In this document: positions 7,389 to 60,895 of the stretch, piece by piece
Layout: every line of letters begins with the position of its first letter
Position numbering within the stretch: the first letter of the stretch is position 1
From: Antedon mediterranea
Lineage: Eukaryota > Animalia > Echinodermata
Assembly (NCBI RefSeq): GCF_964355755.1
Contig: NC_092672.1
Span: 26,108,437-26,172,436, forward strand
Direction of reading: 5' to 3'
Length of the DNA stretch: 64,000 nt
The notes under the pieces: generated by a model
Told to the model about the DNA's origin: nothing
Database searches by the model: none
What the model saw: only the letters and a program-made list of their open reading frames with translations
Position numbers and translations under genes: made by a program

Positions 7389-7421
<33 letters not shown>

Positions 7422-26702: not shown

Positions 26703-27128
26703 TGTAAAGAAGACCCGTGTCACACGTTAACGTTTCCAAACAACTTTAATTCAACAATGATCAGATGTTCGAAATCTGCAACAATAACAAATTACATAAA
26801 CACAAGCATCTAAAGGCTAAGCCTAAAACAAAGCTAGGCCTACTAGGCCTACACCACTGTAAAGCTACCAAAAGCAAACTAGACAAAAAACTCCTTAGAG
26901 CTACAGTATATAATAATATCAAAGTGCTATACAGTGAATGCACTACTCAAAGAACTTACACTATTACGTCTACATTAAGGTTGTATTTTACGGGAATTCT
27001 CTTAAGATGTGCGTATCAATCACCAATTCAAAGATTCACGTGGTCAACATGACCTCTGACCAACTCTTATTATCTAGAACTAGAGAGGGCGCTAAACCAT
27101 TAAACAAGATATAAAGTCAAACTTTACA
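26703..27128 (-). repeat. 5' LTR of BEL/Pao element
   Basis: TG...CA ends; direct repeat of 22223-22648. Confidence 0.95.
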
Positions 27129-30012: not shown

Positions 30013-30851
30013 GCCCCTTTCTCACAGAGTTGTGTGCCAGGAATATTGCGGGAATATACCATTACCATGCCGGTATGGTTTTCTGTGAGAACGGGTCGTC
30101 TTGGCATCATGCCGGCACCATGCCGGCATCGACATGACCTGCTTTAGACCTAGTAATATTCTAGGGATATTCCCCGCAATGCCAGACGGGCATTCTGTGA
30201 GAACGTATTGCCGTTATATTCCGGGGTTCCCCGTCGAGGCTTTGACACCTTGCGCAGTCAAGTGTATCACTTTGGCGCCTATTCAATTCAATTAACAATA
30301 ATAATGTCGAACTGGAGGGATAATGAGATAAGAGAGCTGCTTAAAATAAGGGGACAAGAAGAAATTTGTAGCATAATCTATATAGGCCGCTAGGCTAGGC
30401 CAGCCATAGCTCTTTGTTTGTTGGTGCCTGACCTTTCGTCGCCTTGCTTGTAAATTGTAGGCCTACAGCCTTCTAAGGTGTTTTACAGATTGCCGATGAC
30501 GGCAAATTAATTGCTATACCTGTATAATATTATAATATATGCACAATATACTGTACATAGCTTGTATTGCATAAATATGCTATAAAGGAAGATAATAATC
30601 TGTAACTTAACATTCGCAGCCATATCATCGCTAGACAAAAATAATAACAATAAAGGACGCCCTCAATAATTATTTTGTCAGAGACTTTTTATTGGCCGAA
30701 TATGCCCGACTCCTTTCTCACAGAAAGCCGGTATATACCGGTTATATTTCCGGCACGATAGTCCGATGAGAATGGGTATATGCCGGTAACGATACCGGCA
30801 CGACGCCAGCACTGTACCGGTATATTGCAGGCACATCTGTGAGAAAGGGGC
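30013..30851 (+). mobile_element. Non-autonomous PIF/Harbinger deletion derivative inserted in the LINE ORF
   Basis: 16-bp TIR gcccctttctcacaga / tctgtgagaaaggggc with 3-bp flanks TTA/TTT. An internal relic, MSNWRDNEIRELLKIRGQEEI (~30303-30366), resembles the start of a Myb/SANT-like Harbinger accessory protein. Confidence 0.75.
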
Positions 30852-32512: not shown

Positions 32513-35500
32513 ATGGTTGAAATAACGCCTAGTAGTAGGCATAAAGTAAGTATAGCTTTGTGATATGTGTATATTTTTTAGGACTTGTTGCATATTTAAC
32601 AACTCACTGGTAACTTCACATGTGATGCCTACAAATAATGGCGACGGATTTTCAATTGTTTACAATTATTATGGCATTTATGTTATAAAATCTAGTTGTA
32701 GATCTATATATAAAGTTATCCTACTACTCAAAGTTAGGTTTCTGGAATTTCTTGGTTGGCTGAACACTACTGATCATATAGATGGGGTTACTAAACACCG
32801 TGACCAAATACAACAAAATATCTTACGGAGACTCATACCAGGAGGTTTAGGTTAGGATGAAACCAATTTTTACAGCAAACATAAATAAAACTTTGTCGCC
32901 CATTAAAGCAAAAACTATCTCTGAGATAATCGTCATATAGTTTTTTAGGCCTATTATTAATGTAAAAATATAATATTCAATTTACATTAAATAAGGTAAT
33001 TATTATTTGTTTTTGTTTTAACTGTTTTTAACGTGTGTCACTTAAGGTGATATTTGTTATTTTGATGCACCGTTAGGTACGGTATTGTCTAACGTGTATT
33101 GCTATTAAGCTATCATTATACTGATTGAAATAATTGGATTGCCCTGCTTCACCCATATTATTTATTTTGGGGTTATGACGGCACCATGGGCCACACGACT
33201 GTATAACAAAAAGTTGCTGATTTACACATTTTTCTGCTTATAAAAGCCCGGATTTGTGTTCTTATTTTGTTAAAGTTAATTCTTATATAATTCTTATATA
33301 TTTATGATATAATAATAGTAAAATATTGCATTTTTGTTTCAGTCTTTTTTAGCTGTGTATTTTTTATTAGTAGGCCTATTACTGGATATTACAAAAACAG
33401 GTTAGTTTTTCATATATACATTTTATTTCTAAAAATTATGCACCTAAATTTATTCACAATATTACAGTATAATCATGTTTTCATTTTATTTTGGTTTATT
33501 CATACATTTTGGTCAGTTTTGTTTCTTTGCAGTATATTATTTGTTAAGAGCTACCTCACACAAGGTTTGGCTTTCTTGATGTCCCACTCTTTCATTTGAT
33601 AAAATTGGAGGCAGAATTGTGTATTTTTATTTCCTTCACATGAGAAGTAATTGGGAGTTGAACTTGTGGTACGCGCATGGTGCTTCCCTGATTAAAGGAA
33701 TAAATAGATATAATTAACTCTCTAATTCAAACAGTACTCATTTTAGTCAAGTCACTTTTGGTTTTGTTTTGTTTTGTTGTATGTTCTGGTAGTTGTAAAT
33801 GTAGGCCTCCCATCATCTAAAATCGTATGCAATTCTTAAATGTATTGTCCCACAAAACGGGAAAAATGAATGTTAATAAAAAAAAATTAATAGGTAATTT
33901 TGCAGTTTAAATAAACTTAATCACTTCCGTGAGTTTAAATTACAGTTTTTCAGGTAAACATTTTTGTTGGATCAAATTTTTGGTCAAAGTGAATAACTAT
34001 AATTTAAAAAAAATGTAAATAATTATTTTTTTTCATGATGACAATGCATCTTTAATGAAAGACCATCATCCGACATTTTAACCGCGTATGAAGAATATAC
34101 ACTGAATATGTTCTAAAATGTCAATTATTAATTCCCATTTAATCTAGTTGCATCGTTACATTTACATAAACATTTAAAAATAATCTGTAATCGAGACAAC
34201 AATCATTTGAATTTGATATTATGATGTGTTCTTCTTTTTCCAGAAGTACATGGTGAATTAATCACATCTGACCAGGAAGCCAATGAAGGTGATGCTGAAG
34301 TGAGGATACCTTGTGACTATTCACAACTTACTTCTACTACACCTGCTGGAATACAATGGGATGAACTAAATGAAGATGGGAACATCATTACTCCTGGCTT
34401 TGTTAATGATAAGAGGACTCAGAATGGTCGTTTTGAATTAATAAGCGAAACACTTGGGAAAGCTGACTTGGTGATGTCACTTCCAAACAGATCTGATTCT
34501 CAACGAATATTTCAGTGTGAGGTAAAAACATCAAGTGGAACCATTAAAAGATCAAATCCTTCTATTCTAACTGTATATTGTGAGTAACTTAACATATCAA
34601 TATCATACAACTGGAGAGTTAGAGAGAATAAACATTTGTTTTTTGTTTGTTTTTACTAATTAATAATGTATTCATTAATTAACTCAAGAATATAATGTTT
34701 GTTATAAGTAGAAAAACCTCAATATCAATTTAAATAATATTAAATTCAGTTTATACTGTATATAAAAAAAGAGATAGGAGTTAATTTTCAGTATTGTCAT
34801 AGTACCATTTTCTTTGTTTCACTTGATATTTATTTTAGGTATCTAAACTTTTAATCAATAGCACATAAATATAAAAGTTAATCTTCCTTCAAAAAGTTAA
34901 ATGCTTAATGGTTTACATTTTGGATGTTTTTAAACACTGTTGTTAAGGTCATTTTTTTCTGCAACAAAATACTGTCCATCTTTCTCCACTGTAAATTTGA
35001 CATTTTTTAGAAAATTGAAAAAAAAAACTATAAAAACCAAATAAACATATACAATTTCACTAATGAGCTACAGAGGTACAGTATAATGAATTAACACAAA
35101 CACACAAGTGTTTCACAGGAGTTTAAGTTTGCGAATGAAAAGTTGCTGTCCGAGTTTGAATGGACACAATTGTATATTGTATATTATGATATTTCATCAT
35201 TTTATTACTCTTGTTTCAGATTTGGATAAACCAGTTATTGTCTCGGCAAGTGCTATATATAAAGGTCAAACAGTGACCTTTACCTGTAGTACACCTGGTG
35301 GTAACCCTCCTCCTCGCATTACTCAATGGTATAAAAATGAACAGACAATCCCTAATAACCATTCTAGATACGATATTATTGCAAGTAACAATACAGTTCT
35401 TAAGATTAAATCAGCTACTGTAGAAGATGATGGGAGATATACATGTAAAGCAGAAAGTGGTCAGTTTAAAGGAGATGATGGAAAAACAAGCGTGGTCATA

Positions 35501-38500
35501 CAGTTGATAGTATATGGTATGTAAACTTGGAACATATTTATTAAAATAAAAACTGCTGTGCTGCATTTTTTTGTAGTTAATATTACGATTGAAGACATTT
35601 TGTTTAAAAAAAATATAGTTATTACCACATGTTGATTCTATATTTGGGGCCTACTAATGAGAATGTACATCTAGAAAAAAAATACCTTGTGTTCTTTGCG
35701 ATCTATCAGTTAAAATAACATTATCTGATACAGTAGACCTATTGTACATTGTTTAGATGTTGTTGTTACTTTTAAATCTGAGAATGGCTTTGCAACCTGT
35801 ACTGCAGTTGGTAATCCCAAGCCGCCATCAGTACAAGTAGTAATATTGCAAAATGGAGAAGAAGTTAAGAAGGGAGAAAATACCGCAGCTGTAGAAATTA
35901 ATGACGAAATATGCAAATCTAATCTTACATGTTATGCAGAGAATACTAAGCTTAGTAAAACAACGTTGGAGAACTGTAGTGCAGGTAATACATCAACATT
36001 AATAAAGGTGTTAGACGTAGTTAGATGGGTAGGGTGGAAGAGGTAAATGTGAGCATGAGATGTACTGTATGCTAATCACAACCTATATAAATAAAATTAT
36101 ATATAATTATAAATGGTCGCCTTTTTATGCCATTTATCTACCTGCTTAAAATGTTGTCCATGCTTGTTGGGATTTTATATACCCTTTCACACACATTTAC
36201 ATAGTGTTTTGTTTACCTTGAAAGTAATTTGAATTAGACCCTGATGCAGACTGAAGTATCTATAAAAGTGAAAATATTGTGCATACAAAACTAACTATAC
36301 ACAACTCCAAAGAATTGCTTTGAAGACAATCTATTATTAAGCACTTATTGGTAATTTGTATTATGGTAGTCAATAGTTTTTTTAACCGTTACTCTAAATG
36401 TCGGATAAACAGAATGTCGAAGAATTTTCTAAAAAATCGTCAACACTGTCACACATTCGTAATAAAAGTTGTTTTTAAATTGTTATTAAATAGGTCAGTC
36501 AGTCATTCTTTCATTTAAATGAAATATTCTTCCCATCAAACTCATCTTAAAACGCTCTTTTTTACTTTTAAATTGGTCAACATTTCATTTTTTCATTATT
36601 TTCTTAGCCATTTGATTAATTAAAGTTTTATTTGTGTTGTTTGCTACTGATAATTGATATGAAAAACATTAAAATACATTTGAAACTGACATACTAAACT
36701 ATAAATAGCATAACTAAAATCTGAGACAAATGTCACACTGTATCAAATAATTTGCCTATGAATACTGGACACATTATGCCATATGTGGAGTACAAACACA
36801 GAGGACGTGATAACAAATCTTTAATGTTCATAATAATTAATCAAACTCATGTTTTTGCTGGTTACCATTATACTAATGAATGAATCGTAATAAAAATTTA
36901 GGAGATTTGTTGAATGTTTGTCAGAAAACATTTTAAAATGCATCATATTAATATTCTGCAATTACAATGGCAATGGCGTCTTACCCTGTACTCTATATTT
37001 TAAATTTTATTGAATTGTGGTTTCTATTTTTTATTTTATTTATGTTGTCAATTCTGGTCAGTTCAAATATTGTTGTTAATAATTTCATATTAATTAAACT
37101 AACAATTCATTACACGATAATCTGTGCCTTATAACATCCTTGAAGATAATTATATCGAAAATGGACACCCTTTTAACAATTATTGAAATTGAAATATATA
37201 TTTGATCAGTGGCTGTGATGTACTAATACACCGGGTTAACCCCCTACTCGTCTCGTAAGATGTACTAGGTTCTTTAAAGTGCACACAAGCTAGATGTGTA
37301 ACACTGGACCGAGAAGACTGGTTCTACCACCAGAACCATGGAGTAAGTGAGCCTCGAACCCTTGCCGATGTTATGGCTACGTAATTACGGTTCCACTGTC
37401 TTAACCGCTCGGCCACTCACTCACTCACTATGTAACATAGAATAGGTGTTGTTCATTAGTACATGACCCTACAACATTTCTTGCAGTTAGAGAATAGTAG
37501 ATAAACATCACAAGGTGAAATATTTCCTTAATGACACTTTACATTTCTGTAGTATTGTTGCTTTCTGCTGGTTTCACTTTTTGATTTGATTAAATATTTT
37601 GCCACTAAAATGAAATTGATTTGTCATTAAATTGACTAAAACTACCACTATTATACTGTAGTAGTGGTGGTGCTTCTTGTTTTATATGTAAAATTGAATA
37701 AAGAAAAATAATCAGCAAATTGATTAATAATAATAATAATCATAAAAGCACTGCCAGTCGATTTTAATATGGCCTATACAAAGATTGTAAATTGTTTTTG
37801 TAGGTATTGTAGCAGGTTCAGTATTATTGTACATTGTTCTGATTGTGATTTGTGTTGGATTGCTGCTATGGTTACTGCTTCTTGTTTGTAAGTAAGATGT
37901 CTTTTCCCTTAATTATTAATTTTTAATTAATTGCAAGATTCGATATATCCTGCACTTTAAGATATTCATTGCTTCGTGAGCACTTGATAACAAATCAATT
38001 TGTTACAATTAAATTTTAATTATACAAATTGATGATTACAAAAGACTTTGTCATTTTTATTGATTAAGGGGTAGTAGATTTAAATGATTTATTTAAAAAT
38101 GATATTTTTAATTTAAATTTTAAGATTTTATGCATTACAAGAATATTGAGTGGAGCGATACAGATATTGATATAGCCACAGTTGAAGGAGGCAAGCCAGT
38201 TACGATGAGTTGGAAATACCGTCCAAGTATTGCAAGGTTCAAGACTTTTGAAATAAAGAAAGATAACAAGGTGCTTGGTTCAAATCAAAAGCAATTCAGT
38301 AGTTGCAAAAAGGTCTGTCAGTATGTCTGTTATTGCTGTGTTTACTTTTGCGGATTTTTTTGTGTTGACTACACTAATAAATCATGTAAGTTATATATTT
38401 TTCTAGTAGGTAATTATTTTCAAATTATAATTATGTTACATTAATTTTTAAATCGACTTTTTTTTGCTATGCACAACATTGTAAGAGTATAATAATGTAC

Positions 38501-41500
38501 TTTAATGGTAGTAATTGTTCAGGCTAAATGAGCAACATTCGTGAGTCAATCGAATACAAAGAATACATTTTGTTCATCATACAAATCAGTGAAAATATTA
38601 TTTATTCTTTTTAAATGGTGTCTAAGGAAACCTAGAATGTATGTACGGTATGTCAAGACATAAGATTACATTAATACATTTAAATTTAGTTTTGTATAGA
38701 TATTTGTAATATAGCGTAAGACAAGATAAAACAAGTATTGTATATGTCTATTTAAACTGATTTACATATTTATAATATCATATTTTAAATTATATACATT
38801 TTACTTATCATGGAGATAGTCGAATACAATGCAAATCCTTTTTCTTCACACCTTATCATGAGTAACTGCTGTATACATTAATTTAAACTCATTCACTTCT
38901 GAAAATGTAAAAAATATTCTGATTTCTTTCATAGTTGAGGATAAAACAATGCATAGAAACAAGTAAGTTTAGTTTTAAAATTTCAATAATTTATATAGGT
39001 ATATTATTCATGAAATTATTTATGTATGGCTATGATTATAAAATCATAAATATGTTTTGTTGATTTTTTCTTCTGTTTTCATAGAAATTTCAATTACTAC
39101 ATTATTGCAGCCAACAGTCCCATATCTAAACACATCTATATTATTTCCACAACATTTCCAACACACAAATTTACCTTAGTATAATATAACCAAAAGCAAA
39201 ATATGCCTATTAAAATACTTGATATTGATGTATTGTATTTTAATATCTTGTTTTGTTAACAAATATCAAGCAGAAGTGAAGAGTGTGAGATGATGGCCAA
39301 AGAAAGAGAAGGTCCAGAAGGTGCAGTAAGTAAATAATATATATTTTCTAGTGGAAAACGGAATCTACAATGTTTTGTTAAACTGAGTTTATGTGGTAAC
39401 CTGATCGTAATCAACAGGATAATCAATTTCAACCTAAATTAGCTAGAATTTGTAAATGTTGATTTTCTAAAACGATTAATTTTAGTAAAAGAAGCCAATA
39501 AATGTTGTAATAGTAGACTACAATTACATTGTTGATGTTATAGCTATTCATTGATTTGACACTGTTTTTTCAAAGAAAATTCCTGATGATAATGAAGATA
39601 GTAAACTTCTAGCAGGACATCAAGAAGCATCTGGTGAAAGTACAGACGATAAAGGTAAATGTTAATATTGTTTATTTAGTAGGCCTACTTCTATTTATAA
39701 TTTAAACAATTCAAACATACTTAGCCGTTGCCTGTCCAATATCGACGGGCACCATCTTATAATGAGTTTGATGTTTGGGAATAAAAAAGACAGTACAGTA
39801 ATAATGTTATGCAGTATATACAAATCTATAATTGGATGTACAGTACCAAGCTGTACATTACAGCATTTAGATACAGTTAATATGGATACTGATATACCTA
39901 TTTATTTGTTCATATTTTTTTTGGACAATGAGTAACATGTTGTCAGCACCCTTATTTACATGGTTGCTTTCTGCATGACCATTAAAGAAAGAATAAAAGG
40001 AATACTAATAAATACCTCTATCTATTGAGGGCGATATCTTTTATGATTATAATGTACACTCATTTAGTAATTTCTAAATTTGTACTTAACTTAACTTGTC
40101 CAGAGGTTCCAAAGTTTATGTCAGATTTAGTGGAGAAATAAAATGTAGTGGCGCGTGTGCTTCGTATGTTTTACATGCTGGGTACCAGGTTCGAGTCTTG
40201 TTGATACTTCATGGTCATGGTTCAATTTGTACTGATAATTTGCTGTGTAACAAGATCATATACAAACAATACAATTAAACAATGTTATTACAGAGATCTT
40301 GATCATTCTCAATATGTTCACTATAACATTTAAAAATGGTTATTTTATAAAGTAATTGTTGCCATATCTATACATCAGTTTTGATGAATTTAATGCAATT
40401 AGTATTTTCTTACCGTATTTATTGTTCAGGAAGTGTTTTAGGAGGGAGGTGGATGAGATTTTATTCAAGGTTTATTCGGGGATGGCGTTTTTTTTTGTGG
40501 GTGTAATGGTAATCAAATAAATACCCCCAGTATGAAAAAATACAACACCCACAATTAAAATAGTAATACAATACAGTAAAAATTGTATCAAATCCCTGGT
40601 AAATTGTAGGTGTGTCTCAGAAATATGTTTTTGTCTTAATTGTTTCCCATTCAATTAGTGAATACATTTTAATTGCTTTTTTTAATAAAGGAAGAGATAT
40701 CAGTCATACAGTAAGCTTTCGTTTTTCTTTAAAATCTGCAATTTTACCAATATGTGCATACTAATAATATTTTTATTTATTTATTTTTTTTATATTTTAC
40801 ATTGTATAAATACCGTAGAAATTGCTTTAATAGTTACTCTTTTTTCAAATATTAATAAAAAAAAATCAAATGACATATTTGTCTAAACTTGCTATACATT
40901 TCAGTAGAATTGTATTATATAATTACATTTATATTACGTTATAATTCATTACCTTATCTTCATATGTTTATCTTTACATTACAAGAGGCCACACAAAATA
41001 ACGTCTAATTAAAATACTGTAATACTATTGATATGGAAACATTTTCACAGAATGAAGTAGTTTATCCATCTGGTGTTTCGATGCCATTTGAAAAACCTGT
41101 CATTTATGCTCAAGTGAAACGTGGCAGAAAATCTACTGGTGATATTTATTATTATTTATTTACAAAATGAATTTAAAAAAAAGTGTATTGCTTTATTTTG
41201 CAAATTACTGAGTATTTTAATAATATAACTATTGGCACTATTAGATTTATATTTTTAAATAATCATTTTGATAAGAGGTGTTAGTGTTGTTATCCGAGAC
41301 ATCTGTATATCAAGCAGAAAGTTCCGGTTTCAAATGTCGATCAAGGCGGCGGATTTTTCTCATAGTCACAGATTTCCTCATCTGTATCGTTTCGAATTAA
41401 TTAATTCAATTTTAGTATATCACTGGGTAGTTTAGAATTTCTTCTGTGCCTATTAATTTATATAATTGTTTTCCATCATTGTTGCTATTGTAGATCTAAA

Positions 41501-44500
41501 CTTTGTTAATGCGTTTTGTGTAGATTATAGGCCTATCCTTCTAAATTAGGCTACTTATTATGATTGGGTGCAAAACCAAATATGCATCAAATAGTCTTTC
41601 TCATCATCATGTTTTTGTCCACATTACATTTGTACTGCATTTTGAAAATAATGAAAATAATTTAACAGTGAATCTATTTTTACTAATTTCTTTTTTATAT
41701 TCATTTATAATTGTTTGCGTATAGCTATACTTAATGTGTTGCATAGGTTAGTTGTAATTGATAATTTTTTAATTTTACAAACTATATTTTAACGTTTTCG
41801 AAAGATTTTTGTTTTTGTCAGACATACCTTGCACAAGGTTAACATGTATTTGTTGTTATACCAATCCTACATTCCTATGCGTTCATTGGTTTTAATTTTA
41901 TTTTTATTATTATTTTATTTATGCCACTAGGAAAATCAGATAGTAAACACAAAGAAGAAACATGCAAGGTATTATTCATTTTTTTAGAATATGCTTATTT
42001 GAAGAGAGATAGGAGGCTGTTCTTATTGAGAAAATTAAATTCTATTTCTTAATCAAACACGACATCTATCAAAGCAATTGTGTTCATTTACTTATTGCAT
42101 ATACTAATTGTGAAACTGAAAGTCGATAAAGTTGTTCCAGTTCATGGATACTTTCTTTGTTTATAATTATGATAAAATGTTTTTGTTATTTATTGGGAAT
42201 ATGTCTTAATTAGTTTATGATAAATTATAGAAAGAAATTCAATACGCTGATCTTGATTTACAAGTCAGTAGGCCTACCTCGGGAAGGATAATAGATAATG
42301 AGGAGCAAACACCATATATAGAAATGTCACACGGAAGACTTGTCAGGAAAGGTATTATGGTTGTATTGAAAAATTAAAGACACTGACTTTGTGTTTATTT
42401 CAAATTCATAAGAAAAGGAGAATAATAATGCTTTGATAAACTGATATTTTTATTGTTTGGATTTCATATCAGAAACACTTGTTTTCTTCTTTTGAATGAA
42501 TTGTTAGTAGGCATAACATAGTGCTGCTTTTCAAATTGAAAAATATTCAACAAAATATAATTATATATATAGCTACAGTAAATTTAAACGTAAGAGAAAA
42601 ACTTAATAATAGAGATATGAAGTTTACAAGTAAAAGTAAACTTAAATATAAAAACAACTTTATTTGTACAGTAAATTTTGGCTAAACACTTGAGTAGATA
42701 GAATTTTTTTTTAATTTCATTTCTTACAAAGTCCGTATCATTGTTGAATTTTTGGAAGATTATTATTTTCTCAAAATTTAGATTTTTATTTGTACAGTGA
42801 TACAACCTTATGACACAATAAATTATGTTTTTATAGAAGTCTTTCAACATCCCAAATAACTTAAAAAATTAACTGCAATTAGTGACAACTTTAACAAGTT
42901 TAAATTTTAGTTCATTTTGTAAAATGAACAGAATACAAAGAAAAAGCCTGACAAATTCGAATACATGAATAACCTTTCTCATCTTTATGCTTTTTGAACA
43001 AATGTCTTTTTTTATATAATTATTGCATTGTTTTAAATGGTCAGCTCATGATCTTGTGAATAACTACTTCTACACACATTTGTTAGCACTACTAGATATG
43101 GCACAGTTTAATCAACCTAACATGTTTTATTTGTTATTTTAAAAAATGGAGTGGATTGATTTGATTGTTTTTATATTTCATGCTCTGATGTATGTATTAA
43201 TTTTGTGGCATACACACTAAAAAAAAAAGGTGCAAATCTCTACCTAAAAAGGTGCAAACCGATGCAACAATAGCAGCTCCCTTTAAGGTGCACAACTGCA
43301 CCTTTGACGGAAGGTGCAATTTTGAACCCTGATAAAGGGTGCTATAATGCTCCTTTGGAGTTCACATTTGCACCATATAAGGTGTAATTTTCTACCCTAA
43401 AAGGTGCAAACTAAATGCAACAATAGCAGCTCCCCAAAGGAGCAAAATTCAACCTCTAAATAAAGGTGCAACTTTACACCCTAATAAAAGGTTCAATAAT
43501 GCTCCCCTAAGATTCAAATTTCTGTTAAAAAGGTGCACAAATAAAAATCACTAAAATACAAAAAATATTGATTAAGCTTTGTATAATTTTATTCAACTTT
43601 AAAACATTACATTATTCAATTCAACTGCTGAATTAATGGATGGCAATTACCAGTCTCTGCACCTTAAATAGAGTGTGGCCATCTCTTCTCAAACCAAAAA
43701 TAGGCCTATTGTTAAAATTATCTAATGATGACATCTTTGGCAGTATTCTCTTCTTATCCCCATATATCTGAAACAGTGTTCTTGATGTCTGGTTCACCTT
43801 TTCCGAACATTTTCACCTGATTATGTACTTTCCTAAAAAGCATGAAATAGGAAGGGAAACTATTATATTAATATTATCATTAATATGACAACATCATACA
43901 ATACATTATTGACATTGTTCTGATTTTTAAAGTCAAATTACCTTGACCACATGCTTCACATACTTTAAAGTATGTTCCTCTCCCTTTCCTCAGCTCGTAG
44001 TATAGTAGGCGCTATACTAGAGTATTACAGTACATGTGGTCACATTTCTTTCTCCTTTTCTGAACATTTTTATTGCTGCTGATTAGAGCAGAGGTGCTCT
44101 TTCATGTTTTAAACTTATTTTATCCCTCCATGACATCATGTAGATTGTAGGCTGTAACTATAATTAAAAATAATGATAATGTGTATAAGAATTTAATATA
44201 GGCCTAATAATACCCAGCTACTGTAACAGCCCACGAAATTCAGAAAAAAGAAGGTCGGCAAAAAATTGCCGACCTTAAATTCGCCAAGGTCGGCAGTCTC
44301 GGCAGTTCTAAAAATAGAAAATTCACCCCAAGGCCTAAACCTCTTGCTAACCTAAAAGGCCTAGCTAGGCCGGAGCCTAGCCTCCCTAGCTATGTTATGC
44401 AAAAAGAACTAGCAAAATTAACTTTAAAAAAATATAAAAACCTAACACTAAAATCTACAAGATAAATTCTATTTGATAATTAATTGCTGAATATCATGGT

Positions 44501-50500: not shown

Positions 50501-53500
50501 GACATGATGTGGCGTCAGCTATTAACAACTGTTTTGAGTGAGTCCGTCAATAAATACGAGTGCCGTAGTAGGCATAGCCTAGTTCTGGAACTTCTTATTA
50601 TTCAATACAAACAACTTGCAACTCGTCTGTGTAAATTGGCATCAACGCTTGACACACATCATTGATTTTAAATTTGTTAGCAATTATTTCAAAAAATTAT
50701 TTGTATTTTCCTTATCAATGTTTTAAGAATGTACTGTTTATGTGTATCATGTTTTGTTTCTTTTTGTTTGTTCTAGCAAAAGACTCAAACAGGTAATGTT
50801 TTGTTGATTATACATTAACTGATTTTTTTAACTGCCAGTAAATATTTTGGTAGCTTACTCACAGGTTTTTTTTACGGTTTTAAGCAACACACATTTATTT
50901 CATGCTGCTATACTGTTCACTATTCACTAATTCCTTCTGTATCACCTATGGGATAATGCTGTTTCAAAAGGGTTCAATTTATTTACATTCTTTTTAGTTA
51001 TTATCATAATGTTATTAGAATTAAGGTTAATATATTATTTATGTGGTAGTTAGTTGTAATCCATATCATAACATTTATATTCAATTCTGTGTTAAATCAC
51101 TTTAATCCAGTTACCTTGTTTTTAGTTTAATGATATATTTGATTTTATTTTGGAAACATCATAACATACATACAATATATGATATAAACACTTAATATAT
51201 TGAAATTTATTTCCATATTTTATAAGATCAACATCAACAAAGTATTTTTTCCGTTGCTTTTCTTTTGCTGTCTTCCTTTGGAACGGTTTATCGATCTCTA
51301 TCCATCAGGCTCATTAAATTTAAAGGTAGCTTTAAAAACTCGCTTTTTTAACTCTTAGTTTTCTTTATTTTTTTAATCTCTTAAATCACATTGCATCTCA
51401 TCATGCGCTATAATCCACATTATTATAATTTTATTAAATCAAGTAGCTAGACTTTTTGCTAGAAGAATGTATACAATTATTAACCTTGTTTTAATAGTTT
51501 AATAAATATATACTACCCTTGTATATTTTTCTTTTCATTTAAATCCTTCAAATGCAGTTCTCTTGTATTTGTGTAGTCCATAGTTCATAAGTGTGCCTGC
51601 TTGAATTGTTATTAATTGTTCAAAATTGTTTGCTTTTACTTTGGAGTGTGTTTCTCTGTCAGGAAAATCTCTCAGGGTATTTCATGATTTCATTTTATTA
51701 TGTAAATCTGCATTAGATATTTGTTTATATTTTTGCATGGTTAATAACAGTTCATAAATTTGTCGAAATGGTTTTATACATAATAAGTAGTAATATAAGT
51801 ACTCCAACCATAATGCATTCGCAACCGTACATTTTCATCCGATAACCATCCAGAAATGGAATGAGCCGCATGTGCGCACACGTCTTAATAAACACACCTG
51901 TATGACATTCTAATGTGTGGATGGTGTGTCTCGTATTTTCCTGAAAAATTTGTATTATTACATTTTTTTTTTTTTTTTTAGATCTGAAAATTCATATTCA
52001 AGTAAGTAACATTAATATTATTTCAATTTTACTTGTAAGTTATAATTGATCAAGTTGTAAAGCTTATTAATAATATAGTATGTTAGAATCAGTCAAATAA
52101 ATATAAATAGGCCTATATGAAATGATGTAATTTGTTGCTTAATTAATTAATAAATAATTAATTAAATTAAAAGCATATAAAAAAAGATGATTGTGACATG
52201 TCTGTATATGTATATTCGTTTGAAGTGTTTGCAAATGGTAGAGGGAGAATAAGCCTAAGAGTGCAAAATCCTGTAGGATCTGATTCAGGGACGTACAACT
52301 GCAACATAGAGGGCAGTAGCCAGCAACATCCAGTCCGCAACAGTTTATCTGTTTATTGTGAGTTTTTATAATTTATTATTCTTAATTGTTCACTAAGGTA
52401 TCTATGTTATTGTTTCTCTTCTTATTTGTTTATTTATTTATTGTGTTATGAAATTCAGGATTTACATAATATTTTTAAACAAAGGGATAAAGATGGTAAA
52501 CCCCGAGTACTTAGCAAGACATGGTATCGATAATTTTGAAATGAAGTGCAGATATGGACCAGAAGATATGCAGTTAACAGGTTACAAGTGGAAGAAGATT
52601 AAAGAAGATGGCACAACAGAGATCGAGGATTGTTCTAAAGATCCTAATTTTGAAGTAAAATGTTACCAAAATAGCATTCTCTCGTTAAAGAAAATAAGCA
52701 ATTTTGTAATTGGTGATACTGGGAAGTATCATTGTGAAATTCATCCAATTGCTGAAGAAAAAAGTCTGAAAGCTTCTACAAAGCTGACAGTAGTAGCTAA
52801 AGGTAAGTTTTTTTTAAAATAATTTATGAACACTGTACAGTAGCGGATTTTGTAAATAAGGCGTGGTGATATTGTGTGTAGTACATATTATGTATTGTAA
52901 AACAATGTGCTAATGTTTTATTTTTTTGCATTAAACTGTTCAATATTTAGAGAAAACTGTTCAATATTTAGAGAAAACTCAGGCTGCCCTTCCCCGTAAA
53001 CCATGGGTCTGCCTATGCTGTACTATTCTTATTTCAAACATTTATTTTAGATACTGAATTAAAAATAGTTTTAGTAATATTTTGTAATTCTTAAGGTATA
53101 CGTTAGTGGGCTAAAAATTATGATACAGAAATTGATCTGTTGATTTGTATGCCTAGCTAAACAAATCTAGTACTTGGTTGCAGTCCTACCAAACACCATG
53201 CACATCCTGCATCACCACACATCACATAATGATATGAATAATATACTGTGTGGTGTTAAATAGGGTTGCGAACTGTTTAGTATGGAAACTAATTCCAATA
53301 CAATACAGGATCTCTAAATGATTGACTATCGTAAATTTTGGCCTTACTTATTTTACATTTGTATTTTAAAATGCGCTATATGTGAACATTTGTGTAATTT
53401 AACACGTATGAATTTGGATTTCTTAAAAGGCAAGAATAACTTAAACGAAAGGCCAGCCAGTGTGTTTACCCATAGGTCATTTGGCCTTAATATCGAATGT

Positions 53501-56500
53501 TCAATTTAAAATTGTCTCGGTCTAGTCTTATTTGCGAAATTTAGATTTCGTGCGTGTTTTAATATTGTAGAAACGAATCCTGGTTTTATTAAAAGATTCA
53601 ATAGAAGTGAAATCAGTACTTACAATAAACATAAGATATTTATATTTTTCGTTAATTCTTTTCAGAATGATTCCATTGATATTTACAGATAAACACATAT
53701 TTAATGAACATTGTATTTGTGTGGTTTTTTTTAGATCCAGTATTGACAATAGAGAAAAGTATAATGTGTTTAGCAGAAAACGCCATTATTCCTTTTCGTA
53801 TGTTATCAATTCCACAAAATATCAATGAATTTATTTTTGAAAAACTTGAATCCGGGAAATGGAAGAAAGTTGGAAGTTCAAAATGTTCTGGCAGATTGTG
53901 TGTACATTATGATACAGTAACACTGGAAGGATATCTTACAATTCCAACAGTTGAACATTCAGATGCTGGCGAATACCGCTTAAAATGTGTGACAGATGAA
54001 AATGATATTGTTTACTTGGCAAACTGCAATTTAGATCTGGCCTGTAAGTATATAATGGCAAGTTAAATAGCAACCTACATGAGCAAATTGACTGCATAAA
54101 AGAATTAAGAAATAAAATAAGCAACACATTAACAAAAAATTGAAAAACCTATCCAGTTACATCTTGTGACAAGTTTTTGTCTAATTGAACTATGGAAGTA
54201 CTTATTTTATACCTCCATAATTGTTGAATACACTTACATACTTACTGAATACAACCATATTACTGCATTCTTAATTGAGGTTAATTATTTTTAGATAAAT
54301 TGAATGAATAGAATATTATCTTAACGTTGTTAAGTGTATTACTCTATAATTTTACTCCTTCTGTACAATGACAAACATTTAAGTAAGGATAAATACCCTA
54401 TAAACACCCTATATGACACCTATCAACATAAATGACTGTGAATTAGATACAGTTAACTATGCAAAAATACTCGGTGTTTTCATCCAGGATGATTTAAAAT
54501 TTGATGTCCAGGTTGACCATATCCTTAGTAATGGAGGAAGACGTCTACACATGCTTAGCCTTTTAAAACAGTTTGGGATTCCTTTTTAAGACCTTGCCCA
54601 AGTGTACACCACATATGTTAGACCAATTTTCGAGTATGCAATACCAGTATGGCACTCTAGTCTTACTGTTGCGCAGACAAATGCCATAGAGTCCATGCAA
54701 AAACGTGCATGTAAGATAATTTTGGGTAAAAATTACCAAGACTACAACACTTCCCTTAACATTTTGAATATTAAACGACTAGATGAACGCCGCGAAAATA
54801 CATGTCGTAAATTTGCTACAGATTGTATTACATCTAATAAATTCAAGGATTCCTGAGCTTTCTGTTAAACTTAGGAAAAGAAAAGAATTTGTTGAGCCCC
54901 TATGTAAAACAAACCGATACTATAATAGCCCTAAGCTTTATCTTACACGCCTCCTTAATGAGAGATAGATTTTAACTCAGTAAAACTAAAGACATTTTTG
55001 AAGACGTATAAATAAATTAAACATAATATGTGAATATGTACAAATAAATATATTACTACTGTAAATACCTTAATAACTCCATAATTTTCACATTTTCTAA
55101 TTTTATCAAATTTCATAATCTTGTAAATAAATAATCAATTTCCCTTATTTAATTAAATTTTTAAATTTGTAGATAAATTTTAGCTAAATTTGTATTTTTA
55201 TGTATTTTTCTTGTGCAATATGTTTGATTCCACTTTTATTTGTTCTTTGATTTCTATGTGAACTTTATATACTGTTTTATGCCTGTTTTAAATGTTTTTA
55301 TATTTGTAAGTATCATGTAATTCAGCCATTGGCTGCGATTTTGATATGCAATAAAATGAAATGAAATGAAATGAAATAAATAGTTTATCCACTTCCTCTT
55401 TGCTGCCAAAAAACACCTATTTATACTAACTGTTTTAATAAATTCACCTAAATTTTATAGTAGCCTAAAAAACTGACACATAACTGACCGCCTACTAAGC
55501 GCATTGCATATTGGGTAATGTTAAAGTTTCTTTCGTTTATTTCCACTCACTGATTGAAACACTTTTTATGAGCACAAATTTAGCAAACATATTCTCATCT
55601 ATTTTCAATGGTCACCATTCTTTGGTAATTTTATGATGAGCCCCTGATTCCATGTTTTTAGAAATTCTTTATCCCATAAATGTTCAAGACAATCGATTTT
55701 TTTCTTCCATAGCCTTTGTTCTTTCTTATTGTAGTCAAGTACCTCTTTTGCAATTTCCTTGTATGCAGTTATAATTTTACTACATTTCTTTCCACCACGT
55801 CGTCCTCATCAACACCTTCTAACGCTTCAAATCTGTTATTTAGTTTTATTGAAATTGTCTTCTCCTATCCGAATGTTCAAGCTTAATTGTGTCAAACGTA
55901 ATCCTGCTATTTCTGTGCTGATGCTTACTTTTTAGTTTCAGTTGAACTTGTGTGCGATTTAGATGGTCACTTACGATGTTAGCACCTCTCATAACACGAA
56001 TGATGTCCTATATGGATGATCTGTGTTGCTTACTAAAGTAGTATATGATCTATTTGGTTGTGTGTCACTCCTTCTCCAACATACGCATTATCCTATTCTA
56101 ATATACTTTTTTTAAACATTTTCTGTGCTACTCAGGTGCGACTCAGCAGTCTAATAAAAAAGAAGTTTGCCTTGGTGAAATACGAAAGCATCCTCCAAAA
56201 GAATTTGGTCTTGGTAAAATTGCAACATTTCAGCAAGGACTAACAAGTTTTGAAGTTGCATCAGCAAAGACCATGCGAGATGGCCACAATCGTTTTGTGT
56301 TGTATACAGTAGCTGTTAAACATTCAATTGGAAAAGACACATCTCAGGCCCTGATTGACAGAAGATATACTGAATTTTACCTTCTGAATAAAGTATTAAA
56401 ACGCAAGTACCCTCATATTATGAAACACGTTGTCTTCCCAAATAAAGTCATCACTGGCAATTTCCGTCACCACTTCATCATTGAGCGAATTCGTGCATTT

Positions 56501-59500
56501 GAAAAGTTCTTAACCAACATCTACACTTTTGAAGAGATTAGAATTTGTCCAGAATTTCAAGATTTCTTCTACAACAAAGACCTTTTCAACAAAGAATGTA
56601 ATAATGGTATTATCATATTTGAAGTTTGAATGTGAAATTGGAAACATGGCATTTAAATATGATATGGGTGGGTCTGGGTTTACAGGGGATGCCAATGATG
56701 ATTTAGATTCATTTATTCAAAGATTTTCAGATCATGCTTCATTGCGGGATTATACAGAACACACAGCCCTTTAAGCGTTGAAAACCGTTTACAGCTGGTC
56801 ATGCGAAAATGTTTCTAGATACAATAGAGGTGGAACATAGGAATTCTATAACTAAAAAACGGGACTTGTTAAAAGCAAATTTTGAGGGTCAATCCTGGAA
56901 ATGGGGTATTGAATCGCAGTTGTTAACTAGGAAACAATTACATTCTGAAACCATTGATAATAAATATGCGTCGAACATTATGTTATGGGGTAAACAGATA
57001 AAGAAATCAGATTCTGAGCTCCTGTCTATTTTTATGATATGGTTATTGCCGAACATTCGTGCATTTGTTTTTTCTAAAGAACCTCAGTCTTTTCGAAATG
57101 CTTTAGATGCAGCTCGGCTAGCCATATCCGTTTAGCCTTCCTCTGGTACTTTTATAAATAACCATCCCAAGTCCAGTGTTAGTAATAAAAAATACAACGC
57201 TAGATACGCTCGCGGGGATGGTCGTACAAGTTTCTAATAAATTAGACAGCATTGAATCGTCTAGTCGGGTTCAGGGGTGATTCCTCCTTCTAATAGTAAT
57301 GTTTATGATATGAAAAATGCCGATATATCTAGTCGGACATTTAACTCTCGAATTATTTGTTGGCATTGTGGTTTTCGGGGTCATATGCCAGTGACTTGTT
57401 ATGCTTAGGCAATAAATACGCAACACCTTACTCGGTACCGTTCACTTTATTCATTCTTTGTGTACAACCTCCTGCCCGGAACTCCCCCACTGTACAAATA
57501 CCTCGTCTATTTAAACCAACCCACAGGTGGAAAATATGCAAATAAGTAATTGCGTACAACAAAAGAGTAAAGACGTCACAGCAACTTGTTTCGTCCGCAA
57601 CAGTCGATTTTTCTTGGTTTTCGTTTCTTTTTCCAATGTCATGTTTCCACATTAAACTTCCGTATCGTTTATTTTCCTCTCCCACTTTTGCATTAACATC
57701 TCCCATCAGGATGAGTAGGTTATGTTTGTGTATGCTATCTATCCATCTTTCAAATACCTTTATTAATCATATTTCATGTCTTGTTTTTTAGTCTGTTTGT
57801 TAAGGTCCTCACACAAGCTACGGGTATCTAGGATTGTCCCACTCTTTCGTTTAAAAGTTTATTGAGGGAAAATAGGTTTTTAGATTTTCTATCTAGTGAA
57901 AATGTATGTCTAGTTAAATCTTATATACTGTATAGTATTTCCTAATTTAATCAAGTGTAAGCCTTTTTTTTTAAATGAAGTTGAGTAATTTTTATTTGGT
58001 TTAATACGGTAATAATCATATAATAATATCATAATAATTCTACATAGCTAACAGTGATTACTTTCCTTGCTATTCTCACCAATATCAAAATATACTTCTA
58101 TTTAATTTTGCCATTATTTATTGTTACATTTTTTTTAAAGACATGGATGATTGTTTTGCAACACTTGGAGAAAATGCTGTTTTAACTTACAAATATGAAA
58201 GTGATAAAGATATTGTTGTTAGGTGGTATAAGAAGACTTTTGATGGAAATACATTGATACTGTCTTCTAGTGAATCGAGGATAAAACAGGTAGAAGGAGC
58301 TAACAAAGGAACCATTGGTCTTAATGAAACACGGTTGGAATTTAAGAAGGTAGTTTTAACTGATGCTGGAGTGTACATATGTAATCTGCGTAAGAAGAAC
58401 ATACCTCATGAAATCACAGCAAATCTATATGCACCATGTAAGTATATTGTTATATTTTTTTTTCATTATGATAATAATTTAAATCAAGTTAACACATCCA
58501 CAAATGCTTTCTGACGATGTAACAGTATTTCGCTTTTTATTTTACGGACGAAAAACACGGGATCAAGTCGTGGCCCGTTTACCATTTACCAACATAATGA
58601 AGTAAATATACCTTAGCCCAACCATGGTTGTGGCTGAGGTAAGAACATTTTAAGAATATCGGCTCTACGTCTCCAGAAATTGCAATTGTATTGTTTTTAT
58701 TTGGAGGGTAAACATTGCACAATCTAGATGTTCTCCTTTATTACGCACATGGTGGGTCTAGGACAACTACCCTCTGGACAACTACACCCGGACAACTACC
58801 ACCCGGACAATTACTACCTGGACAATTACCCTGCTAGGACAACTACCACCCGGACAATTACCCTCTTAGGACAACTACCCTCTAGGACAACTACCCTCTA
58901 GGACAACTACCCCCTAGGACAACTACCCGCTAGGACCACTACCCCCTAGGACAACTACCCCATAGAACAACTACCCATAAGAAAACTACTCCCTAGGAAA
59001 ACTAAACGCTAGTACTACTACCCCTGGGTAGGTAACAGTCAAACCAATATTCCATATTATTACTGGACTTGCAGTAAACGTAAAATGACAGCAGCATGAC
59101 ATAAGCTCTTACGGTAAAACATTTGTTTTGGAAAAGAAAAAGAATGAACAAAATCAGGCCAGTTGTATCGATAGTAAGGGGCTGATAAAAACAATGTTTA
59201 TATTATGATTTTTGATGACTGGTGACACCTACACCTTAGTCATTTCGTTTAATTTCATTTATTTTGCTTTTTTTGTTAATAATAATAAATTACATTTGAC
59301 ATGAAGATGCCATATATAAATCTAGGAACACAGTTTACCAAGTTGCACCAGTGTAGAGGGTAGTTGTCCATCGCTTTCGATGGGACGTCCCATTCCAAAT
59401 TTACAAATTTAATATAATTAAATAGACTGGTTAAGACCAAACATTGGTTATTTCAAACTCATATAAGATCATGATAGATACATAACTAAATAATATAAAA

Positions 59501-60816
59501 TAACAGATAAGCAACACTAACTCTAAAGTTTTCATTCGTAGAACACTGTTTAAGTTTAACAGAAAAAGTTTTAACATCAAGTATGTCTACGCATATGTCC
59601 TGGATATCTGAAGGTCCCAGATCCGAGGGAATCTAAATAAAATAGAAGTTGTCCTCGAGGATAGTTGTCGTAGAGGATAGTTGTCCGGGTGGTAGTTGTC
59701 CTAGGGGGTAGTTGTCCGGGTGGTAGTTGTCCTAAGAGGGTAGTTGTCCCAGAGGGTAGTTATCCTAGGGGGTTATTGTCCGGGTGGTAGTTGTCCTAAG
59801 GGAGTAGTTGTCGTAGAGGGTAGTTGTCCTAGGGGGTACATGTCCGGGGTAGTTGTCCTAGGGGATATTGTCCGGGTGGTAATTGTCCGGGTGGTAATTG
59901 TCCAGGGGGTAGTTGTCCGGATACGAACATGATATCGTCACTGTGTCGTGTCAGAAATCTTAAGATTTTATATTAAATTGCCATATTAGTAATTCATCGT
60001 CTCGCTGTTTCTTGTAAGCTGCGTATTACGTTAAAAATAAAGGTACTTATGACGTCACTAAAACGTAACTTTAACGTTGTTTTTACTTTTCAATTTCTCA
60101 AGCTGCGTCACACGGGCCTATTTTGTAGCCTGTAAGTTGGTGAAGTGATGGTACATAATAATGCAATAGAATAACTGAAGCGTAACCATTAGTTATGTGT
60201 ACCAACCATGCAAATGCAAGTTATGCATAGCTTGCTTGGGTTATATAAATTAATTAACTAATTAATTAAAACAGTACAGTACACCAATGTGTGGCTACCA
60301 GCATAACAAACGTAATTCCGCGATTGCAAGATAGTAAGAGTGTTACAAAGAGTTAGACAGCTCGAATTTGAGCCACGGCCCATAGTTTACAGAGCTTCGC
60401 TTTTTAGTAGTATTGTAAACCATTATACTGTACAATTATGACATAAACATTCATAAACAGTTGTCATTATATTCCTTTTAAAAAAACTTTGATTAAAAAT
60501 ATAAATACCAATTTTTTCCAAATGCTAACGTGTAAATACATTAAATGTTGTCTTTTACATAGCTTTAATGTACTTGGATTTGTTTTGTTTTTTAAAATAT
60601 GGATGTTCATAATGTTCTTGAAACCAAATGTTTCTAAAAACACCTGAAGAATTAAAGAAAATAAAGGTGTCTTTTTAATATTGAAAGATTTTTTCATTTG
60701 ACCTTACAGTATATTATCAAAACAAATCATTTATGATACAAATAAGAATATTGAACCTATTGAATAGTGTTTTCTTTTTTCTACAGGGGATGTGTTTACT
60801 GATAATATTGAATCAG
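32513..60816 (+). CDS. Ig-superfamily type I receptor: signal peptide, 3 extracellular Ig, TM, ITIM-bearing region and 4 cytoplasmic Ig-like domains; continues past the window
   Basis: 24 GT-AG exons chain in frame without a stop: 32513-32545, 33343-33400, 34244-34579, 35220-35516, 35757-35984, 37804-37887 (TM), 38125-38316, 38935-38962, 39274-39325, 39576-39654, 40691-40710, 41051-41138, 41931-41968, 42231-42351, 46496-46533, 46905-47019, 50777-50792, 51227-51241, 51982-52001, 52226-52357, 52485-52802, 53735-54043, 58141-58437, 60787-60816. The micro-exons, several AAG acceptors and the 38316 donor are the weakest points. Confidence 0.75.
34244..35984 (+). CDS. Three extracellular Ig-domain exons of the receptor
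   Basis: RIPCDY..IQWDEL..IFQCEV; TFTCST..TQWYKN..DDGRYTCKA; ATCTAVGNP..LTCYAEN. All are phase 1-1 exons with both canonical Cys. Confidence 0.9.
37200..37425 (-). mobile_element. tRNA-derived SINE with Deu/Nin-domain-like core
   Basis: On the - strand: A box tggccgagcgg (37405-37415), B box ggttcgaggc (37351-37360), then ttaaagaacc..cttacgagacgagtagggggttaacccggtgt, which resembles my recollection of the Deu/Nin (AmnSINE1-type) core. Confidence 0.7.
37804..37887 (+). CDS. Transmembrane exon of the Ig receptor
   Basis: GIVAGSVLLYIVLIVICVGLLLWLLLLV, with tag| acceptor and |gtaagt donor. Confidence 0.85.
41051..47019 (+). CDS. ITIM-encoding cytoplasmic exons of the Ig receptor
   Basis: VIYAQV (41051-41138), IQYADL...TPYIEM (42231-42351) and IQYADL...TPYMEM (46905-47019). 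Confidence 0.8.
43213..46205. mobile_element. EnSpm/CACTA-like non-autonomous element (intronic)
   Basis: Termini cacactaaaa..aaggtgcaa / ttgcacctttagttttaagtgtg flanked by TA on both sides, with many subterminal aaaggtgcaa/ttgcaccttt motifs at both ends. Confidence 0.7.
44227..44885. mobile_element. hAT-like MITE with 6-bp TSD nested in the EnSpm-like element
   Basis: TIR cagcccacgaa / ttcgtgggctg; TSD ctgtaa (44221-44226, 44886-44891); subterminal ggtcggca/tgccgacc repeats. Confidence 0.75.
47777..50640. mobile_element. Outer Harbinger-type MITE split by an inner Harbinger derivative
   Basis: gccaaattacacagacgag at the left versus ctcgtctgtgtaaattggc at the right. Confidence 0.55.
47846..50384 (+). 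mobile_element. Non-autonomous Harbinger element with a MADF-domain relic
   Basis: ~28-bp TIR ggccggtgcacacc(a/g)aacgcgaagccgc with TTA/TTT flanks; internal EILCNYPSCLYDKGSKSYTDRNK (MADF-like, disrupted). Confidence 0.75.
52226..58437 (+). CDS. Post-TM Ig-like exons of the receptor (half domain plus three whole domains)
   Basis: ISLRVQNPVGSDSGTYNCNI (52226-52357); EMKCRY..YKWKK..DTGKYHCEI (52485-52802); YLTIPTVEHSDAGEYRL (53735-54043); VRWYKK..LTDAGVYICNL (58141-58437). All phase 1-1. Confidence 0.85.
54400..55378 (+). mobile_element. 5'-truncated L2/CR1-group LINE fragment (RT C-terminus and 3' tail)
   Basis: KILGVFIQDDLKF..YTTYVRPIFEYAIPVWH..IESMQKRACKIILG; ends aataaa(atgaa)n at ~55350-55378. 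Confidence 0.8.
56136..56629 (+). other. Captured SNX20/SNX21-type PX-domain coding segment (candidate cassette exon or pseudo-exon)
   Basis: Open frame from the acceptor ctcag|56136: ..FEVASAKTMRDGHNRFVLYTVAV..IDRRYTEFYLL..FPNKVITGNF..IERIRAFEKFL..FQDFFY, which matches the SNX20/21 PX signature. The PXB region is absent. Confidence 0.75.
56646..57410 (+). pseudogene. Gypsy-type gag relic (capsid + CCHC knuckle)
   Basis: FTGDANDDLDSFIQRF..LLTRKQLHSETI..LLPNIRAFVFSKEPQSF..A, then CWHCGFRGHMPVTC (~57358-57399); frameshifts and stops; no flanking LTR seen. Confidence 0.7.
58754..59925. mobile_element. Foldback/MULE-like MITE with inverted arrays of 16-17-bp repeats
   Basis: (ggacaactaccctcta)n at 58760-59025 versus (ggtagttgtcc..)n at 59645-59920; degenerate flanks acatggt / acatgat. 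Confidence 0.7.
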
Positions 60817-60895
60817 GTAACATTTACAGGTAAATAAATTATTTCTTTAATTAGTTGTTTTAACTGGTATCATCTTATTAACATTGTTAACTAAA

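Follow-up and report, generated by a model that had tools for sequence, protein, structure and literature searches.

Immunoglobulin (Ig) receptors that carry immunoreceptor tyrosine-based inhibitory motifs (ITIMs), among them the CD33-related Siglecs, LILRB/PIR-B, SIRP-alpha and PD-1, are expected to end in short unstructured tails, and sialidases are expected to be enzymes. Here we describe a locus of the crinoid Antedon mediterranea at which one protein likely unites inhibitory motifs with Ig domains in the cytosol, an Ig fold that is discontinuous, and a pseudo-sialidase. The locus occupies the second half of a stretch of 64,000 nucleotides (the window; assembly GCF_964355755.1, contig NC_092672.1, positions 26,108,437 to 26,172,436 of the forward strand), which is AT-rich animal DNA without a single N.

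Parts of this layout have precedents. Integrin beta4 has a single transmembrane (TM) segment and a cytoplasmic part of ~1000 residues with four FnIII domains and a connecting segment; Shp2 binds to its phosphotyrosines (PMC4388270). In the sea cucumber Apostichopus japonicus, AjNLRC4 joins extracellular Ig domains to a large intracellular NACHT effector, and two TM segments have been reported for it (PMC8699970). Inactive trans-sialidases of Trypanosoma cruzi, in which a one-residue change replaces the catalytic Tyr, have kept their binding of sialic acid and work at the cell surface (PMC5504189), and the Cys-rich "TM" motifs of yeast CYSTM proteins turned out to be palmitoylated and not spanning (PMC10840359). 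A layout such as that of the crinoid protein was the subject of no paper that we found in the open literature, where most subscription papers are missing.

Gene model and the divided Ig domain

The gene was rebuilt from splice sites. Between positions 32513 and 60816, 23 exons, every one with AG/GT ends, form a phase-compatible chain that is stop-free over 999 codons and still open at its last position. An earlier reading of this DNA from its letters only (the sequence-only reading) had described such an unbroken chain, starting with a signal peptide, three Ig exons and one TM exon, and all of these were recovered (Table 1). Its exon list was incomplete, since exon 52226-52357, which is used by RefSeq and by all paralogues, was missing from it; the chain stays open without this exon too. 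Exon 52485 is 100% identical to A. mediterranea RefSeq XP_071944339-41 (P0001, 679 amino acids [aa]). The final 362 aa of the 999-aa chain are the start of P0001, and adding the remainder of P0001 brings the protein to 1316 aa. From its N-terminus the protein has a leader, three Ig domains and the TM segment. A 57-aa segment and a Cys-rich stretch come next, then a charged tail encoded by small exons. The tail is followed by a 49-aa segment, by three Ig domains that are whole, and by a propeller of 327 aa. The small exons of the tail hold three motifs of ITIM pattern (VIYAQV, and IQYADL twice) and two of YxxM pattern. The ITIM pattern scanned for after the TM segment was (I/V/L/S)xYxx(L/V), and the same scan also finds chance cases inside folded domains. 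The two ITIM/YxxM cassettes arose by tandem duplication, the second being a copy of the first with 78% identity.

Four Ig domains had been counted after the TM segment by the sequence-only reading. Three of these are whole (exons at 52485, 53735 and 58141), but the fourth is present as two halves, on the exons at 38125 and 52226. A profile of 110 positions, built from 30 intact Ig domains that follow TM segments, is matched by the 57-aa segment at positions 8-45 and by the 49-aa segment at positions 62-108, without overlap, in 7/7 proteins; at this locus the N-terminal half matches positions 14-45 and the C-terminal half positions 71-98. The halves of this locus add up when joined, with 8.2 and 11.5 bits apart, 23.2 bits joined and 14.2 bits with the N-terminal half shuffled, and only 4 of 1000 shuffles of the N-terminal half score as high as the original. 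The hhalign probability was 31% for the N-terminal and 92% for the C-terminal half. An insert of 118-226 aa lies between them. The N-terminal half is not a relic, because no other part of the family is conserved as well (its identity to this locus is 68-88%, vs. 56-66% for Ig1). These matches show, at the level of sequence, that the two exons encode complementary halves of one Ig domain. We infer that the halves fold together, in which case the insert would be a loop. Structure prediction did not confirm this pairing: a construct cut out to contain the split Ig domain was folded by AlphaFold at a predicted local distance difference test (pLDDT) score of 35.5 only, and the full model of the paralogue P0003 has strands in both halves at pLDDT 43-66. 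When the P0003 model was used for fold searches, the matches were generic chains of several Ig domains and did not probe the split domain itself, and the Atlas matches of the N-half exon to Dscam-like and C2-set fragments (0.81-0.88) are leads only.

The propeller and the gene family

The sequence-only reading expected an effector domain beyond the window, possibly a death fold, NACHT or TIR domain. A C-terminal domain does exist there, but it is a BNR/sialidase propeller, and P0001 contains no Pfam family of the three expected kinds. The C-terminus of P0001 matches Pfam BNR_2 with an E-value of 2.2e-11 and 44.1 bits, above the cut-off of 31.4. A profile of the family's propellers matches 18 sialidase-type sequences of the PDB, a phmmer search of P0001 against the PDB gave 0 matches, and the best matches outside the family include animal sialidase-3-like proteins. 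We take the arginine triad of the active site to be R21, R237 and R304 in the numbering of NEU2. Roles in NEU2 are described for D46 (acid/base), for Y334 and E218 (the Tyr/Glu nucleophile pair) and for R237 (PMC5669518). Six of the seven active-site columns are lost in 9/9 family members, two of which are from the crinoid Anneissia, and the columns are retained in 8/8 control sialidases. The first Arg persists in all nine members, and the second Arg and the two other triad Arg are gone from all nine; the nucleophile Tyr is Glu in seven and Ser or Cys in two, its partner Glu is His in nine, and the acid/base Asp is absent in 9/9. In a quick tree that retained 59 of 83 sequences, the nine family propellers (support 100) are sister, on a long branch, to the Antedon sialidase-3-like protein P0029 (XP_071940874; SH-aLRT 92). 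P0029 has no signal peptide, begins with MGGSTS and matches cytosolic human NEU2 at an E-value of 2.7e-30; the MGGSTS is presumably a myristoylation consensus. Judged by alignment and tree, the propeller descends from a NEU2/3-type sialidase and has lost six of seven active-site positions, a pattern that is old and kept, because it is common to Anneissia. The domain would thus be neither an enzyme nor a good sialic-acid lectin, the latter argued against by the loss of the R237 and R304 equivalents, but probably a protein-binding hub.

Antedon paralogues were found by word-based searches and a full profile search, all of them among proteins, on which their count is based, and were told apart as genes by accessions and isoform names. 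The paralogues of like architecture that the sequence-only reading had proposed to seek do exist: seven RefSeq genes (P0004/3/12, P0005, P0008, P0011/2, P0013/9/14, P0020 and P0166) encode the TM segment, the 57-aa segment and downstream Ig domains in one protein, and 5/7 end in the propeller. Most of them lie on one 28.6-Mb contig, the studied locus on a contig of 39.0 Mb. What distinguishes the isoforms P0003 and P0004 is the ITIM block. An eighth gene, P0017 (XP_071958835), has the same ectodomain, then a TM segment followed by RKRRSRR and a different end. After the TM segment it has four Ig domains, up to 58% identical to the post-TM Ig domains of P0020, with YATT-type tyrosine repeats between. 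P0017 is possibly a death-signalling sister receptor, against which it must be said that the match of its end to TRADD-N plus DED is an Atlas lead only (0.85) and that Pfam found no death-fold family in its C-terminus. In Anneissia japonica, P0028 consists of a half-Ig, four Ig domains and part of the propeller, P0023 of Ig and propeller, and P0024 of the propeller; the TM-bearing half was not found in this species, which also counts against the full architecture. About nine repeats of SVQSPDPT type interrupt one of the post-TM Ig domains of P0011 and P0166, a second insert within an Ig loop in the family. In DNA runs, the summed depth over 38125-38365 is tens of times that of the flanking introns, which is not a copy number; from this depth of the N-half exon, there may be more members of the family than have been annotated.

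Membrane topology, transcript and alternatives

No second hydrophobic segment had been seen by the sequence-only reading, but there is one: the Cys-rich stretch (aa 409-427, at the end of exon 38125-38385), with a Kyte-Doolittle (KD) value of 1.52. The corresponding stretch reaches KD 1.75-2.0 in 6/6 paralogous models scanned that have it, and no Pfam family matches the exon at E 0.1. It is likely a palmitoylated, non-spanning helix at the inner leaflet, so that a missed second TM exon, which the sequence-only reading had named as a danger to itself, was not clearly found. A scan for hidden TM exons (113 candidates) is an imperfect test, since it missed the known TM exon. Its top candidate, an in-frame hydrophobic stretch from acceptor 52398, was rejected; the intron behind exon 52226 would then measure only 40 nt, and 52485 is the acceptor used in P0001 and in every paralogue.

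The alternative, that the Cys-rich stretch is a second TM segment, would give the protein two extracellular arms and a 60-residue cytosolic loop, and the C-terminal Ig domains and the dead sialidase would form an external arm for adhesion or lectin binding. The stretch is long enough to span, with KD 1.5-2.0 over 19 residues and a 30-residue helix (390-419) in the P0003 model, and the clustering of Cys on one face of the helix is borderline (p about 0.05). The sea-cucumber receptor AjNLRC4 is reported with two TM segments (PMC8699970), inactive trans-sialidases of T. cruzi act as lectins (PMC5504189), and the topology of human NEU3 is itself disputed (PMC5482835). However, the stretch sits between two halves of one domain, which a spanning segment would leave on opposite sides of the membrane, and the ITIM-pattern motifs come after it (at this locus, in P0004 and in P0013), so that they would lie outside the cell. 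The P0166 model omits the stretch in frame with the rest retained, and 4-7 Lys/Arg follow within 20 residues. In P0017, homologous Ig domains come after a plain TM segment with a basic cluster. Both canonical Cys are held by 13/13 scored pre-TM Ig domains vs. 17/28 post-TM domains, and by 1/3 whole post-TM domains at this locus (8 pre-TM and 3 post-TM domains were unscored); sequons number 35 in 21 pre-TM and 27 in 31 post-TM domains. The more frequent Cys loss and the fewer sequons after the TM segment favor the non-spanning reading, although the majority of post-TM domains still hold both Cys and 27 sequons remain, and the Fisher p of 0.008 for Cys loss is set aside because paralogues are not independent. 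Their models are, moreover, automatic predictions. The closest intact relative of the propeller is of a signal-peptide-free type, the lost R237 and R304 equivalents speak against a lectin arm that binds sialic acid, and the yeast CYSTM motifs set a precedent for a helix that does not span (PMC10840359). A second TM segment is thus quite improbable, and we consider it likely that everything after the first one lies in the cytosol.

Whether the whole chain is one transcript at this locus is a separate question. RefSeq covers the 3′ half only, with three transcripts that all code for P0001 alone, a product without the signal peptide of its own that a separate 3′ gene, as imagined by the sequence-only reading, was to have. 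An unlikely, though by no means negligible, alternative is that the locus holds two units, a 5′ ITIM receptor ending at a cassette exon and a soluble cytosolic 679-aa Ig/pseudo-sialidase made from an internal start, which intronic transposons may have uncoupled, so that the fusion would exist in the paralogues only. Such an internal start is what RefSeq has, at Met638, a Met formed at the 52001/52226 junction (linker exon 51982-52001 gives the A of its ATG). P0006 shares this Met as its start, the start of Anneissia P0028 lies at roughly the corresponding point, and a protein for the 5′ exons was not found in RefSeq by two protein searches. Read-through of donors 42351 and 47019 meets a stop after 8 and 2 codons, respectively; terminal-inverted-repeat elements lie at 43211-46207 and 47777-50640, and 8 AATAAA lie between 47019 and 50777. 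No RNA contig was found to join 47019 to 50777 or to anything further on, and no exon joint was among the 15 of 127 listed for 41800-61400, where repeats swamp the signal and low-depth joints are hidden. On the other side, every junction is canonical and in frame, the linker exons at 50777 and 51982 match coding linkers of paralogues, and two units would place the Ig halves on different proteins. Run X1 is RNA-like at 37750-40050, with depth confined to exons. Two of its contigs contain the GT..AG joint 37887-38125, which is absent from the DNA runs X2 and X3; this joint may not come from this locus, because the loose ends translate to paralogues P0003/4 and P0009. One X1 contig (depth 7.4) spans exon 39576, from which it differs at 3 of 82 letters, and runs on for 17 letters that match, within the window, only exon 46496 (1 mismatch), an overhang under our bridging bar of 31 letters. 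It suggests an in-frame skip of four exons, yielding a 910-aa form, and shows splicing of the tail across the first transposon. X1 has no cover at 41800-42453, which weighs neither way. Since RefSeq holds the 3′ half only and RNA contigs back part of the chain, a single full-length transcript here is likely, not proven. There is least to say for a dispersed duplicate in decay, one that left the main cluster and whose extra modules drift without function. The locus is on a different contig (39.0 Mb) from most paralogues (28.6 Mb), has the longest propeller branch among Antedon members (0.7 vs. 0.04-0.28) and has lost, in Ig B and Ig C, Cys that paralogues retain. Nevertheless, 999 stop-free codons over 23 exons with 317 more in RefSeq, spliced RNA, and a dead-site pattern that is common to Anneissia, and so old and kept, make decay very improbable.

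Of the lineage-specific ITIM receptor with cytosolic Ig domains and an effector that the sequence-only reading had proposed, the overall design is supported, in that paralogues carry the whole chain in one model and several indirect arguments support the topology; its effector is instead a dead sialidase, one of its Ig domains is split, and RefSeq has its 3′ half only. The protein is most likely an inhibitory or mixed-signal surface receptor, and likely an inhibitory receptor that doubles as its own docking scaffold, because its tail has ITIMs, Ig domains and a dead sialidase. We picture a 1316-residue single-pass receptor with three Ig domains outside and everything past the membrane helix predicted to be cytosolic. 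The Ig halves would pair and the ITIM insert would form a loop, pinned to the inner leaflet by palmitoylation of the Cys-rich helix at its start. Binding of a ligand by the variable ectodomain may lead to phosphorylation of tyrosines in the loop, whereupon the three phosphorylated ITIMs could recruit SHP-type SH2 phosphatases and the two YxxM motifs perhaps PI3K (we assume that YxxM is read by PI3K p85 and ITIM by SHP-type phosphatases). Cassette splicing might set the number of motifs; one RNA contig shows skipping, and so do isoforms of paralogues. The Ig chain would act as a spacer that holds the catalytically dead propeller away from the membrane as a protein-binding docking scaffold. On balance we lean towards this full reading of a single-pass inhibitory receptor with a cytosolic Ig chain and a pseudo-sialidase scaffold. 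It is also conceivable, though doubtful, that it exemplifies a class of crinoid receptors whose cytosolic Ig domain is split by a phosphotyrosine loop that is anchored by lipid and alternatively spliced, in which a half-pairing switch couples ITIM phosphorylation to a dead-sialidase-tipped arm, and swappable tips (the pseudo-sialidase and possibly the death-effector end of P0017) lead to different outputs.

The window and described systems that resemble the receptor

The features of the gene are collected in Table 1. Its tail-region introns contain high-copy elements with terminal inverted repeats (43211-46207 and 47777-50640), each of which holds a nested second element (inverted arms at 44216/44896 and 47845/50385). 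Intron 54043-58141 contains, at 56102-57400, an intronless PX-domain fragment (Pfam PX E 5.7e-14) next to which lies a disrupted gag-like sequence that includes a zinc knuckle, so that a retroelement has likely captured a retrocopy here; this stretch has a 1499-nt relative in run X1 that is about 90% alike. The part of the window upstream of the receptor gene opens with about five tandem copies of a ~1.5-kb unit, visible as recurring open frames (1-7400). These are followed on the plus strand by a gene (8557-14800) of which one exon is acidic and 286 codons long and another encodes a Rubicon-homology domain, which we take to be PLEKHM/DEF8-like, and by a multi-exon gene of the beta-lactamase family of serine hydrolases (18348-20960; Pfam E 5.3e-25 for one exon). 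On the minus strand, a 1277-codon open frame at 22671-26501 has DUF1759, DUF1758, an integrase zinc finger and DUF5641 and is flanked by sequences like long terminal repeats near 22270 and 26750. This element, presumably a retrotransposon of the Bel/Pao class, looks internally deleted, because no reverse-transcriptase family matched. Also on the minus strand, at 27100-30100, translations indicate a broken element resembling long interspersed elements, with endonuclease and reverse-transcriptase fragments.

Table 1. Exons and encoded domains of the receptor gene, in positions of the window
Feature	Positions	Strand	Evidence or remark
Two signal-peptide exons (32513-32545, 33343-33400)	32513..33400	+	Hydropathy; leader type shared with paralogues P0013, P0019, P0020
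Extracellular Ig1, V-type	34244..34579	+	Both canonical Cys; counterpart in P0003 folded at pLDDT 79-89
Extracellular Ig2, I/C2-type	35220..35516	+	Sequence; P0003 model
Extracellular short Ig3	35757..35984	+	Pfam Ig_2 E 5.9e-4, below cut-off
Single strong TM exon	37804..37887	+	KD 19-mer peak 3.19; GT..AG joint to 38125 in RNA run X1, in part at least derived from paralogues
N-terminal half of split Ig (aa 350-406), then Cys-rich hydrophobic helix (aa 407-432)	38125..38385	+	Profile match; KD
Charged disordered tail, four small exons (38935-38962, 39274-39325, 39576-39654, 40691-40710)	38935..40710	+	
ITIM exon (VIYAQV)	41051..41138	+	
Cassette 1: spacer 41931-41968 and exon 42231-42351, ITIM IQYADL, YxxM (YIEM)	41931..42351	+	78% identical duplicate of 46784-47039
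Cassette 2: spacer 46496-46533 and exon 46905-47019, ITIM IQYADL, YxxM (YMEM)	46496..47019	+	
Two linker exons (50777-50792, 51982-52001)	50777..52001	+	Homologous linker in P0004, P0005, P0011, P0013
C-terminal half of split Ig	52226..52357	+	Pfam V-set positions 70-96, E 3.3e-4, below cut-off; profile positions 71-98
Post-TM Ig A, both Cys retained	52485..52802	+	
Post-TM Ig B, both canonical Cys lost	53735..54043	+	Weak Pfam match, E 0.032
Post-TM Ig C, B-strand Cys lost	58141..58437	+	Pfam V-set E 2e-6, above cut-off
First exon of sialidase-like six-bladed propeller	60787..60816	+	First 10 residues in the window, other 317 aa beyond

Compared with described systems, the crinoid protein is a real but unusual variant of the ITIM-bearing Ig receptors. 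With the CD33-related Siglecs, LILRB/PIR-B, SIRP-alpha and PD-1 it shares a signal peptide, an ectodomain of V and C2/I Ig domains, one TM segment, tyrosine motifs on small cassette exons and a cluster of paralogues with variable ectodomains. Unlike them, it has folded domains in its tail, which is about 970 aa long, ITIMs inside a split Ig domain, a Cys-rich helix and a C-terminal pseudo-sialidase. The likeness to the Siglec, LILRB and SIRP families is one of architecture, and no homology test ties the crinoid ectodomain to them; the fold matches of the P0003 model contained no conspicuous V-set chain of a Siglec, and no Siglec alignment was made. The propeller has a likely direct ancestor in the GH33 sialidases of NEU2/NEU3 type, to which P0029 belongs, and retains their BNR/Asp-box propeller and first RIP-type Arg. 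In contrast to these enzymes, it has lost 6/7 active-site positions (9/9 members) and is fused to a receptor tail. The inactive trans-sialidases of T. cruzi likewise reuse a sialidase fold without catalysis, their Tyr being replaced, whereas the crinoid domain has also lost arginines and acids and is predicted to be cytosolic. The Cys-rich stretch resembles CYSTM/CYSPD segments, short helices with 5-7 Cys that look like a TM segment (PMC10840359), but CYSPD is C-terminal in small proteins and no Pfam family matches the crinoid exon, so the likeness is an analogy only.

Among echinoderms, AjNLRC4 also joins an Ig ectodomain to a cytosolic effector. However, its effector is a NACHT domain, all its Ig domains are extracellular and two TM segments are reported. 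The family described here has expanded in Antedon, and a second crinoid shares the C-terminal half of its proteins. If the topology is true, it would provide a candidate self/non-self receptor family for the earliest-branching living class of echinoderms, and a natural experiment on the tolerance of an Ig domain for an insert of about 120-230 residues carrying signaling motifs. The closest working analogy is integrin beta4, with its long modular beta-sandwich tail and phosphotyrosines, although it differs from the crinoid protein in having FnIII and Calx-beta rather than Ig V/I domains, in being part of a heterodimer without propeller or split domain, and in its unrelated sequence. Given a cytosolic tail, the crinoid protein would thus represent the independent invention of an integrin-beta4-like scaffold on an immune-type receptor.

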